Of a DNA stretch of 64,000 nt, positions 30,801 through 33,068 are shown piece after piece (the first letter of the stretch is position 1; each line of letters starts with the position of its first letter). The stretch is taken from positions 3,104,001-3,168,000 of the forward strand of contig CM000151.3 of NCBI GenBank assembly GCA_000004695.1. The letters are read 5' to 3'. The stretch is from Dictyostelium discoideum (Eukaryota). The notes under the pieces are model-generated. The model worked only from the letters and a program-made list of their open reading frames with translations, had not been told where the DNA came from and did not search any database. The translations under genes and the position numbers were made by a program.

Positions 30801-33068
30801 AATAATAATAATAATGATAATAATAATAATATTGAATTAATGAGTGATGATGTTTTTGAATCATTTAAATTAGATTTTGCTATTAAAGATTTATTACCAG
30901 TTATTAATGTAAATCAAGTATTATCACTATGTGATATATTTATAAATAGTTACCTTGGATTTAGATATTATTATAGTTCAATTATTCCTGACCCAGTTCA
31001 ACCAAACAATGACTATTTAATTCAATTTAAATCAATTTCAGAGAGTATCTTAAAGGATTGTGAATTTGATATTCGAGAACGTTCAATTCTTTGGAAAGAT
31101 TATTTAGGTAAAATCATTCAAAAAGCATCTTCTGAAGATTCAAAGAGAATTGCAATATCCATTCAACCAGATTTACCACTTTTACATTTAATTAATAAAT
31201 TCCAATTACGTGATATCAAAGAACCTTCAACCAATTTATCAATCTTTACTTTTGTTTTACCAAGTATGACTTCAAGTTATTATGCAACATTTATGGGTAC
31301 ACTTCAAGAAACTCTAACAGTTTTACACATTCAATTGGATGAAATTGGTGAAGTTACAAATGATAAAAATAGTAGATTTGGTAGTGGTGGTGGTGGTGGT
31401 TTAATCATTTTCAAAGAATTAACAATTGATGATTTAAATGGCACTACTAAAAAGAAATTTTTCAATCCAAGAGCTTCAACCCCTTCACAATCTCAAGATA
31501 ATAGATCCATTAATCCAATGTTTAAAAAAGCTGATCAAAATTTGAAACTTAAAGAATTAGTATCATACAATAATGAATATCTAACTAAAAATGTTAAAGT
31601 TATTAGTAATGATGGAAATGATAAAGAAGAGGATGAATCATTAATTAAAACTATGTTAATATTAAAGGATCATACTATCAAAACATCATCATCATCATCG
31701 TCAATACCAATCTTTGCTACGAGTTTATTAGAATGGATAAGATTCAATTTAATTGATTTATTAAATATTGAAGATGTTAAATTCTCTTTCTCTTTATATA
31801 CAGAGTTACAACATTTCAAATCGATTTCAAGTAAAAAATTAAAAGAACCATTCATAGTCGATACTTTATTTAAGGAATTCATTGAAGCAAATGATGAATT
31901 AATGGAATTATTAAATTCAACTCCATCTTCATCCTTCTTATCACCTTCAAAGATTTTAGCTTTACTTTTACAATCAATTAAAAAAATATCATCATCCATA
32001 TTCACTCCTCTCACTGGTAGTTGTCAACATATATGTAATGTTTGTAAGAAATTAATAAAACCAAATCTTCAACAATTTATTTTGGACTTTACTGTAAACA
32101 TTGATTCAAATAATATCGAAGAGAATATTGCCAACACACTCTACTCTCAAAATAATTCAATTGAGCAATGTAAAAATTGTAATAAACAAGTTCAACGTAA
32201 AACAGTTTTAATTAGCTCACCATCTCATCTTTTAGTTTCTGTAAATAGAATTAAAAATGGTGAACCAACTTTCAAACCTATCGATTTCCCAAAATTCATT
32301 AAAATTGGTAATTCATTTGAAATTCAAAATGATGATGGTAGTGGTGGTGATGATTTAACCTATGTATTAGAATCTGTGCTAATGTCAAATGGAAATCATA
32401 GTTCAATTCATATTAATTCCTCAGATGACAATGAAAATGCAAGCATTAGATGTTCAACCAATGATCCAGTATCATTCATTAACAGAAGTGAAAATTTAGA
32501 GGTTGAAAAAAGAACTTCAATTTTATTCATTTACAAACAATCAACTCTAAAACAAGAAAAAGAAGATGAAGTTTTAGTTGAAAATCAAATGAATATTGAC
32601 AATAATGATTTCTCAAATGAAGATGCTATTACTACCTCAACTACTACAACTACTACCACCACTACTACTTCTACTTCAGAAGATGAACAACAAAAACAAC
32701 AACAACAACAGCAACAACAACAACAACAACAACAACAACAACAACAAAATGAAATTGATGAAACAATGGATGAGTCTCAAGAAACTGAACCTGAAAATAT
32801 TAAAATTAAAATTGATCCAACAAACTCTGCCAAATTGACAAGAGTTGAGATTGTTGATAATCCTGAATTAAATGACAGTTTTTTATCTTGGTTTATTAAT
32901 ATCCCACTTTCTCCTACTCAAAGAACTGCAATTGCCAAAGTATTTGAAGAAAATTCAATCTCAAATTTCGAAACTGCTTTTTCAATCACTGAATATGAAT
33001 GGAAAGATTTAATTAAAAAAGTAGGAGACAGGGCTCTTTTCTTGAGATATTTAGGTTATTTTGATTAA
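15857..33068 (+). CDS. Giant gene of about 5,600 codons. Exons 15857..16905, 16996..17662, 17780..18363, 18444..33068. It encodes a multi-AAA+/P-loop ATPase of unknown family: an N-terminal Asn-rich repeat region, three P-loop modules, a long helical body and a C-terminal Cys cluster.
   Basis: The 14.5-kb ORF (18558..33068) is continuous with upstream ORFs through introns GTACAG..AAG, GTAACA..TTTAG and GTAAGT..ATAG, all keeping frame. Walker A motifs are LLSGEFGTGKTLY (about 20868), ILKGDTGTGKSFSF (about 21995) and LLVVGPPGCSKTISF (about 23325). Walker B-type motifs are IFVIFIDEFNTAP..IIGAMNP and SVVFLDEAGLVDE..VILSNK. The junction of exons 1 and 2 is the least certain. Confidence 0.65.
15932..16232 (+). 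repeat. Two tandem copies of a 159-bp (53-codon) coding repeat in exon 1 of the giant gene.
   Basis: The unit aataatgaaaaacaaaatgataataaaaatatagagcaaactcaaaaagaag... recurs at 15932 and 16091 with a few substitutions (NNNEKQNDNKNIEQTQKEE[IA/VV]PKTETNK...). Confidence 0.8.
16393..16560 (+). repeat. Pure (AAT)n microsatellite of about 56 units, encoding a poly-Asn run of about 70 residues inside the giant gene.
   Basis: Read directly from the sequence. It yields mirror ORFs on the other strand (poly-Leu, 16327..16659), which are artefacts. Confidence 0.95.

Follow-up and report, generated by a model that had tools for sequence, protein, structure and literature searches.

A giant RNF213-family AAA+ protein of Dictyostelium discoideum carries a cysteine cluster that may be the zinc ribbon of a divergent, degenerate USP-like domain

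The window analysed here is a stretch of 64,000 nucleotides (nt) from Dictyostelium discoideum (positions 3,104,001 to 3,168,000 of contig CM000151.3, assembly GCA_000004695.1), with a G+C content of about 22% and with poly-Asn and poly-Gln tracts. It holds a giant open reading frame (ORF) of 14.5 kb (18558..33068, plus strand), and inside this ORF sits a cluster of cysteines whose possible relation to the ubiquitin-specific proteases (USPs) is the subject of this work. Residue numbers count from the Met at nt 18561, which gives a product of 4835 amino acids (aa). In the D. discoideum assembly GCA_054883475.1, where the window ORFs 55375-56610 and 41931-43088 have exact matches to genes on JBTAPE010000001.1, the gene is annotated as encoding a hypothetical product of 5623 aa, with no Pfam family recorded. 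The annotated gene extends past the edge of locus L004, and its product exceeds the last exon by about 790 aa. An exact database look-up of the 4835-aa exon product returned nothing, the reason being that upstream exons belong to the annotated gene. Just 5' of the giant ORF lie three ORFs on the plus strand (15857-16936, 17027-17665 and 17853-18428), with AT-rich gaps of about 90-190 nt, and these ORFs (15857-18428) are probably upstream exons of the giant gene. The exon, its AAA core and the elements of the cysteine-containing domain are the following.

18561..33068, plus strand: last exon of the giant gene, coding for an RNF213-family AAA+ protein, 4835 codons (ORF list, translation, neighbour matches to GCA_054883475.1)
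22410..24770, plus strand: AAA core, aa 1284-2070, homologous to AAA3-AAA4 of RNF213 (phmmer against the PDB; weak Pfam AAA_7, AAA_22 and AAA_5)
31983..32540, plus strand: USP-like fingers and palm, aa 4475-4660 (local and global hhalign, permutation nulls, PDB-wide profile matches, reverse hidden Markov model (HMM) test)
32034..32045, plus strand: putative zinc knuckle 1, C4492-N-V-C4495, aligned to the first CxxC of the USP fingers
32169..32180, plus strand: putative zinc knuckle 2, C4537-K-N-C4540, aligned to the second CxxC of the USP fingers
32199..32252, plus strand: strand resembling the USP 'KRF box', K4547...P4554-SHLLVSVN-R4563-I (hhalign and HMMER; kept in the relatives P0001 and L002/L007 described below)
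32361..32417, plus strand: strand pair resembling the USP His box, Y4601-VLESVLMSNGNHSSI-H4617-IN, with H4617 on the USP catalytic His (hhalign, HMMER)
32460..32465, plus strand: N4634-D4635, in the place of the USP catalytic Asn/Asp and invariant Asp (global hhalign; register uncertain by one residue)
32520..32537, plus strand: terminal hydrophobic strand ILFIYK, comparable to the USP C-terminal 'aYiLfY' (global hhalign; conserved in the family)

The original prediction had placed the cluster in an AAA+ giant, which our searches confirmed and narrowed down to a protein resembling RNF213. A single-sequence phmmer search against the PDB matched aa 1284-2070, over about 790 residues, to the AAA region of RNF213 from human and mouse (chains 9jwg, 8s24, 6tax and 7oim; E 4e-46 to 1e-38), and the GPPGCSKT of the giant aligns with the Walker A motif of RNF213 AAA4. 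A Pfam scan of the whole giant gave weak matches only (AAA_7, AAA_22 and AAA_5). With RNF213 (mysterin), a vertebrate AAA+ E3 ligase, the window protein shares its giant size and the dynein-like AAA core (E 4e-46 for aa 1284-2070), but it lacks the RING and the RZ finger and has at its C-terminus a USP-like module and a conserved tail instead. The ligase elements of RNF213 are the RING and the RZ finger, the latter with the ligands C4505, H4509, C4525 and C4528, the nucleophile C4516 and the base H4537 (PMC11549300). In the D. discoideum protein, the post-AAA residues 2101-4093 returned poly-Asn artefacts only from the PDB, with no resemblance detected to hinge, E3 module or C-terminal domain of RNF213. 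Pfam found no RING in the giant, and within its 4835 aa CxxC occurs just twice, each time in the ribbon; the RZ pattern was not found in the 4835-aa ORF, and the profile of the family described below missed the RNF213 chains in the PDB at E<=10. No Cys clusters were seen in the putative upstream exons either. Since neither the exon nor these putative exons contain further Cys clusters, a RING or an RZ finger is impossible here. With about 2000 post-AAA residues lacking a PDB relative and with no ligase fingers, the host is therefore, as judged from its sequence, a motor of the RNF213 family with a different C-terminal end.

An exhaustive phmmer search with aa 4095-4665 against 1.84 billion representative sequences found four proteins, all of them dictyostelid: a 584-aa gene-model fragment from Dictyostelium cf. 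discoideum (P0001), a 4827-aa model from Synstelium polycarpum (P0002), the 228-aa D. discoideum protein DDB_G0278777 (P0003/P0005) and a 64-aa fragment from a Logan assembly (P0004). The locus of P0001 (L001, 1-12051, JBTAPI010000071.1, Dictyostelium cf. discoideum) encodes a full RNF213-like giant with the same set of C-terminal modules, which the annotation splits into three genes (3964+, 765 and 584 aa). Compared with the window protein, this giant has 49% identity over the AAA part, 32-35% over the rest, and it is probably a paralogue of the window gene, because the two have no flanking genes in common. DDB_G0278777 (L002, 10001-10901, CM142509.1) is a decayed stand-alone copy, located elsewhere in the same genome, which consists of fingers/palm and tail only and is 41-45% identical to the window domain. 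Its lesions are a frameshift and, within the ribbon spacer, an in-frame stop, both of which the 223/228-aa gene models mask as 'introns'; in a Logan assembly of another strain (L007, 1000-2400; DNA 98.5% identical) the same stretch is an open frame. The copy is either a pseudogene with polymorphic lesions, or the lesions are sequencing errors.

The Synstelium model has a C-terminus fused to a CDC48-like AAA domain and is without the ribbon. Within aa 4500-4827 of this EukProt entry there is an abrupt switch from the pre-ribbon 'KKLFTITTKLKL' of the family to a CDC48/p97-like AAA D2; slightly upstream the model has 'PVSCHPFVHCLF', at a place taken in the window protein by poly-Ser and then 'IPIFATSLLEW'. 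P0002 is probably a fused gene model, from which the true Synstelium C-terminus, ribbon included, is not readable. Taken together, dictyostelids appear to have a small paralogous family of such giants. A word-indexed protein search with the C-terminal region or with the family alignment gave no match, although P0001, P0003 and P0005 are in the same collection, and its negatives for an AT-rich, low-complexity giant are not to be read as absence; with the AAA core it returned fragments only, with no informative Pfam domains.

The four sequence strings that the original prediction had quoted are real and lie in frame in the ORF: GSCQHICNVCKK (aa 4486-4497, nt 32016-32051), EQCKNCNKQ (aa 4535-4543, nt 32163-32189), VLISSPSHLLVSVNRIKNG (aa 4549-4567) and DLTYVLESVLMSNGNHSSIH (aa 4598-4617, nt 32352-32411). 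The first of them contains C4488-Q-H4490-I-C4492-N-V-C4495 (nt 32022-32045), and the spacing of 45 aa that had been given is that from C4492 to C4537. C4492-x2-C4495 and C4537-x2-C4540 (nt 32034-32180) are the sole CxxC motifs of a protein with 54 Cys in total. When its residues were shuffled, two CxxC motifs fell within 60 aa in 54 of 5000 shuffles (p about 0.01), while five Cys fell within 53 aa in 483 of 5000, and for this reason the density of Cys is by itself unremarkable. Of the proposed CxHxCxxC...CxxC cluster, the two CxxC pairs stand: both the decayed copy (L002/L007) and the paralogue P0001, at locus L001, have kept all of C4492, C4495, C4537 and C4540. Its beginning does not stand, as C4488 and H4490 (nt 32022-32030) are not kept in either. 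The four conserved residues are putative zinc ligands, shared by three family members.

With an RNF213 homologue as host, the cluster might be taken for an E3-type zinc finger equivalent to the RING or the RZ finger of RNF213, in which case the giant would still be a ubiquitin ligase. Like the RZ finger (RNF213/ZNFX1), it is a Cys/His-containing putative zinc site that belongs to a protein of the RNF213 family and lies in its C-terminal part, and C-x-H-x-C-x2-C has the superficial look of a Cys/His finger. However, its ligand spacing differs from that of the RZ finger (C4505-x3-H4509...C4516...C4525-x2-C4528...H4537, PMC11549300), where a C-x3-H and a C-x2-C enclose a central nucleophilic Cys, and the first Cys and the His of the window pattern are the two residues that the paralogues have not kept. 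A RING needs eight ligands, against two CxxC in the whole protein, and the family profile had no RNF213 match in the PDB at E<=10. We consider an E3 finger extremely unlikely; for the cluster itself, the ligand pattern and the conservation led us to reject RZ finger and RING.

Most USPs carry a four-Cys zinc ribbon at the tips of their fingers, and some have lost it. For comparison with the USPs (peptidase C19, PF00443) we used the catalytic domains of USP7, USP2, USP14, USP8, USP21 and USP12 (alignment A4), each confirmed against PF00443; as positive controls, all six gave full-length matches (profile positions 1-254 of 254) with 218-281 bits. The alignment of the small dictyostelid family (A5), compared with A4 by hhalign, gave a score of 32.2 (P 0.0014, probability 18%) over 138 collinear columns. 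The aligned blocks follow the order LF.G..CxxC, dLsl.i, CxxC, K..i..lP.vL..l.R, FP and Y.L..V...G....H. Block by block, the 'sIF.pL.G...CxxC' of the family corresponds to 'lF.G.....C..C' of the USPs; 'K...i..sPshLlvsvnR', which in the window protein is the strand K4547...R4563-I, corresponds to 'K...i..lP.vL.lhLkRF' and is followed by 'dFP'; and 'Y.LeSVlmsnG...sIH' corresponds to 'Y.L.Av..H.G...GH', with H4617 on the catalytic His. In global mode the alignment runs on through N-D-P-V (USP 'dD..V') and ILFIY (USP 'aYiLfY'). The likeness to USPs comprises two CxxC knuckles at places resembling those of the fingers and a block order and spacing that extend through ND.V and the terminal strand.

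This score is above what chance produced. Permutation of alignment columns gave 13.0±2.5, with a maximum of 23.4, and none of 354 permutations reached 32.2; the reversed alignment scored 16.1. When the Cys were masked the score was 23.7 (P 0.025), and the Cys-free palm alone scored 25.0, placed at USP positions 242-315, against a null of 11.6±2.0 with a maximum of 19.1 in 200 permutations. A USP HMM applied to three family members gave per-sequence P values of 0.001-0.002, in the same region each time. In the reverse test, the family HMM scored USP12 at 14.8, USP21 at 12.7 and USP8 at 10.6 bits, and the best of 6000 shuffled USPs at 11.0. The resemblance to a USP ribbon and to the KRF and His boxes, first noticed from the sequence alone, thus exceeds chance in directed profile tests (32.2 vs 13.0±2.5), for the fingers/palm half only.

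Searches of the whole PDB led to the same family. An hmmsearch of the family profile against 177,635 PDB sequences gave nine matches at E<=10, four of which were USP36 (E 0.036 and 0.045) or USP47 (E 0.11); the top-ranked match was a 54-aa kinesin coiled coil, which is spurious. The profile of the palm alone had USP7 as its top match (E 0.13). USPs were the only family that recurred across these unbiased profile searches. A Foldseek search with a low-confidence model placed Ubp8 at ranks 1-3 and USP30 lower, with non-significant values (E>=0.7, TM<=0.21), and this result is anecdotal because the model is unreliable, with a predicted local distance difference test (pLDDT) value of 37.

Several observations weigh against a relation to USPs. 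The profile search that had been recommended as a check was negative: the Pfam models UCH, UCH_1 and zf-UBP (the ZnF-UBP finger, PF02148) did not match the window domain, P0001 or the L007 copy at E<=10, and no family member reached the gathering score of UCH (PF00443), 23.9 bits. No USP was found among the phmmer relatives of the C-terminal region in the 1.84 billion representatives, and single-sequence phmmer of the C-terminal 600 aa and 186 aa against the PDB had no relevant match. The hhalign probability is only 18%, and the PDB E-values (0.036-0.13) are individually borderline. AlphaFold2, run on shallow alignments of five rows, reached pLDDT values of 33.4 (aa 4095-4670) and 37.1 (aa 4384-4668). 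The USP seeds were picked after the resemblance to USPs had been noted. The CxxC motifs supply part of the score, and in the reverse test the ribbon-less USP7 and USP14, which are without them, gave p about 0.05 only. Finally, the N-terminal half of the USP domain is undetectable, and what is present may be no more than part of a USP fold or a remodelled one; its binding of ubiquitin is purely inferred, and known pseudo-USPs such as PAN2 act as scaffolds (PMC10919355).

Many of these points would be accounted for if the domain were a lineage-specific zinc-ribbon/beta domain unrelated to USPs, with a chance or convergent match of short motifs in a biased protein from an AT-rich genome. The lack of a Pfam match and of any USP among the 1.84 billion representatives, the low hhalign probability, the PDB E-values, which are borderline and headed by a spurious kinesin coiled coil, the missing confident fold from AlphaFold with a shallow alignment and the restriction of the family to dictyostelids all agree with this explanation. 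It does not easily accommodate seven blocks in USP order with USP-like spacing, nor a Cys-free palm that is independently significant and is placed on the correct region of the USPs, nor the recurrence of USPs in two unbiased PDB searches with both permutation and shuffle nulls exceeded, and we regard it as rather unlikely. Each single line of evidence for USPs is weak or borderline, yet the lines are congruent and name one family, the Cys-free test included. We conclude that the profile-level similarity to USPs is borderline and limited to the fingers and palm (aa ~4475-4660), and that it probably reflects true homology of the fingers/palm.

The Cys box and the thumb of a USP could not be recognized. 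The stretch from aa 4168 to 4487, the 320 residues before the ribbon, is free of Cys, and neither aa 4091-4262 nor aa 4376-4474 shows similarity to the QQD box or to the Cys box (G.N.GNTCY.NS.LQ), which in USPs places the catalytic Cys where thumb helix 1 begins. Compared with the USP profile by hhalign, these two regions, the second of which lies at the position of the thumb, scored 14.4 and 13.1, both at null level. The original prediction had found no catalytic Cys box, and these results bear it out; its statement that the His positions are not conserved is wrong for the catalytic His of the window protein, since H4617 falls exactly on the USP position. L002/L007 have retained this His, P0001 has Asn in its place, and N4634-D4635 is A-D in P0001 and G-H in L002/L007. 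In the search for a Cys box two upstream Cys were rejected: C4124 is Ala in L001 and in Synstelium, and C4167, which P0001 alone has in common and Synstelium lacks, is not surrounded by anything like a Cys box. Given the lack of similarity to Cys box and thumb, the lack of Cys in aa 4168-4487 and the variable His and N-D, a canonical Cys protease is, by its sequence, very unlikely.

A less conventional enzyme can be imagined, an active deubiquitinase or protease of ubiquitin-like proteins that would use H4617 and N4634/D4635 with a nucleophile located elsewhere or supplied in trans. In the window protein the His and the Asn-Asp pair do stand on the aligned catalytic positions with a spacing like that of USP2, and USP39 and USP52/PAN2, formerly held to be pseudo-deubiquitinases, have been reported active via non-canonical residues (PMC10919355). 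The same absences of Cys and of Cys-box or QQD-box similarity speak against such an enzyme, as do the substitution of the His by Asn in P0001, the A-D or G-H in place of the N-D pair in the paralogues and the fact that the sole upstream Cys common with P0001 (C4167) lacks Cys-box context and is absent in Synstelium. We consider it highly unlikely.

The window domain thus differs from USPs in lacking Cys box, QQD box and a recognizable thumb, in falling below detection by Pfam and in the variation, among dictyostelid paralogues, of the residues at the catalytic positions; its USP fold is putative. It may also be compared with the pseudo-USPs (the USP39/Sad1, USP52/PAN2 and USP53/54 class), in which a USP-like domain without canonical catalytic residues is part of a larger machine (PMC10919355). 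The domain was seen to be no closer in sequence to pseudo-USPs than to active USPs, and it is joined to an RNF213-like AAA+ ring, a combination that we did not find in the literature searched.

The reading that we favour, with moderate confidence, is that the Cys cluster is the fingers zinc ribbon of a very divergent, probably inactive domain of USP fold (peptidase C19-like), carried by a giant of the RNF213 family. In USPs, the surface formed by fingers and palm cradles ubiquitin. By analogy, the role of the four Cys would be to coordinate a structural zinc at the finger tips and the sheet of fingers and palm would be a binding surface, so that the module would act as a catalytically dead pseudo-USP, a zinc-stabilised binding or scaffold module on an ATPase. 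Ubiquitin or one of the ubiquitin-like proteins would be the likeliest ligand, sitting between the palm and the fingers. A motor without RING and RZ may then read the ubiquitin mark instead of writing it, or the module may simply scaffold a partner; scaffold and allosteric roles have been reported for pseudo-deubiquitinases (PMC10919355).

Around the fingers and palm, the C-terminal region contains four further segments.

30843..31343, plus strand: conserved region, aa 4095-4261, common to L001 and the Synstelium homologue, without USP Cys-box similarity
31344..31685, plus strand: low-complexity linker, aa 4262-4375, with poly-G and acidic stretches, probably disordered (sequence; poor alignment between paralogues)
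31686..31982, plus strand: conserved region, aa 4376-4474, at the expected position of the USP thumb (alignment A5; no Cys, no detectable USP similarity)
32805..33065, plus strand: conserved C-terminal tail of about 85 aa, aa 4749-4835 (alignment A7; no Pfam match)

The region aa 4376-4474 opens with a poly-S run (aa 4376-4381) and is helical in the low-confidence AlphaFold models (DSSP). The tail follows a poly-T/poly-Q linker and is common to the window protein, P0001 and DDB_G0278777; its invariant residues include W4777, P4782, NF and FL. The tail profile weakly matched calmodulin and myosin regulatory light chains (E 0.003-0.3), in the helix-loop of their first EF-hand, and the acidic Ca-binding loop of an EF-hand is missing from it. 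A SAM domain at the extreme C-terminus was also considered and found no support, the sole weak signal being that of EF-hand helix 1. Pfam scans of the whole protein, the last 855 aa, a 267-aa region, P0001, P0005 and the trimmed domains matched none of the models UCH, zf-UBP, SAM and RING. Homopolymer tracts in the ORF, such as the run of about 37 Asn (aa 4054-4090, nt 30720-30830) and the Thr/Gln runs (aa 4692-4729, nt 32630-32760), separate the conserved blocks and produce spurious matches (MBP-fusion linkers, NDC1, CDC27 and similar).

The AAA core also has relatives in a different setting. At L005 8327-11836 and L006 8508-11978 we observed proteins of about 1150 aa with 27-28% identity to the RNF213-like AAA core (E 6e-79 and 4e-43), followed by proteins of 2256 aa and 2435 aa. 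Both loci are GC-rich (54% and 63%) with dense same-strand gene arrays, and L006 adjoins a release factor of bacterial type; they appear to hold relatives of the RNF213 AAA core from prokaryotes. A USP-like or family-like C-terminus was looked for in L005 and L006, and none was found. In the window, the precomputed annotation of the matching assembly places PF28132 (the DDB_G0273449 family), a Dictyostelium-specific family, twice, in the two genes that flank the giant (53833-54897, plus strand, and about 34700-36100).

An undescribed architecture had been part of the original prediction, and in the literature that we searched RNF213 relatives appear together with Dictyostelium or Amoebozoa as incidental co-mentions only, and the architecture itself was not found. 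What would be new here is a divergent pseudo-USP on an RNF213-like chassis, in the form of a USP relative that was missed by Pfam and by single-sequence searches in the three family members tested. RNF213 is a central factor of cell-autonomous immunity and the main gene of susceptibility to Moyamoya disease, and the way in which its AAA motor and ubiquitin chemistry are coupled is a standing question. The amoebal relative has kept the motor, has no RING or RZ finger and carries a degenerate USP-like module instead, which suggests that the effector end of RNF213-type giants is exchangeable within the ubiquitin toolbox. A broader proposal, that in a dictyostelid family of RNF213-type AAA+ proteins the RING and RZ writer has been replaced by a USP-derived reader or eraser together with the conserved tail, is tentative and in our view doubtful. 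If true, it would mean that in a professional phagocyte the RNF213 motor chassis became linked with the ubiquitin system either before the E3 version of animals or independently of it, and it would provide a tractable amoeba model for motors that engage cargo marked with ubiquitin, for example bacteria or damaged membranes. Dictyostelium is haploid, genetically tractable and a natural host of Mycobacterium and Legionella, and if the module binds ubiquitin, it would offer a simple system in which to ask what the motor does on ubiquitin-marked targets.

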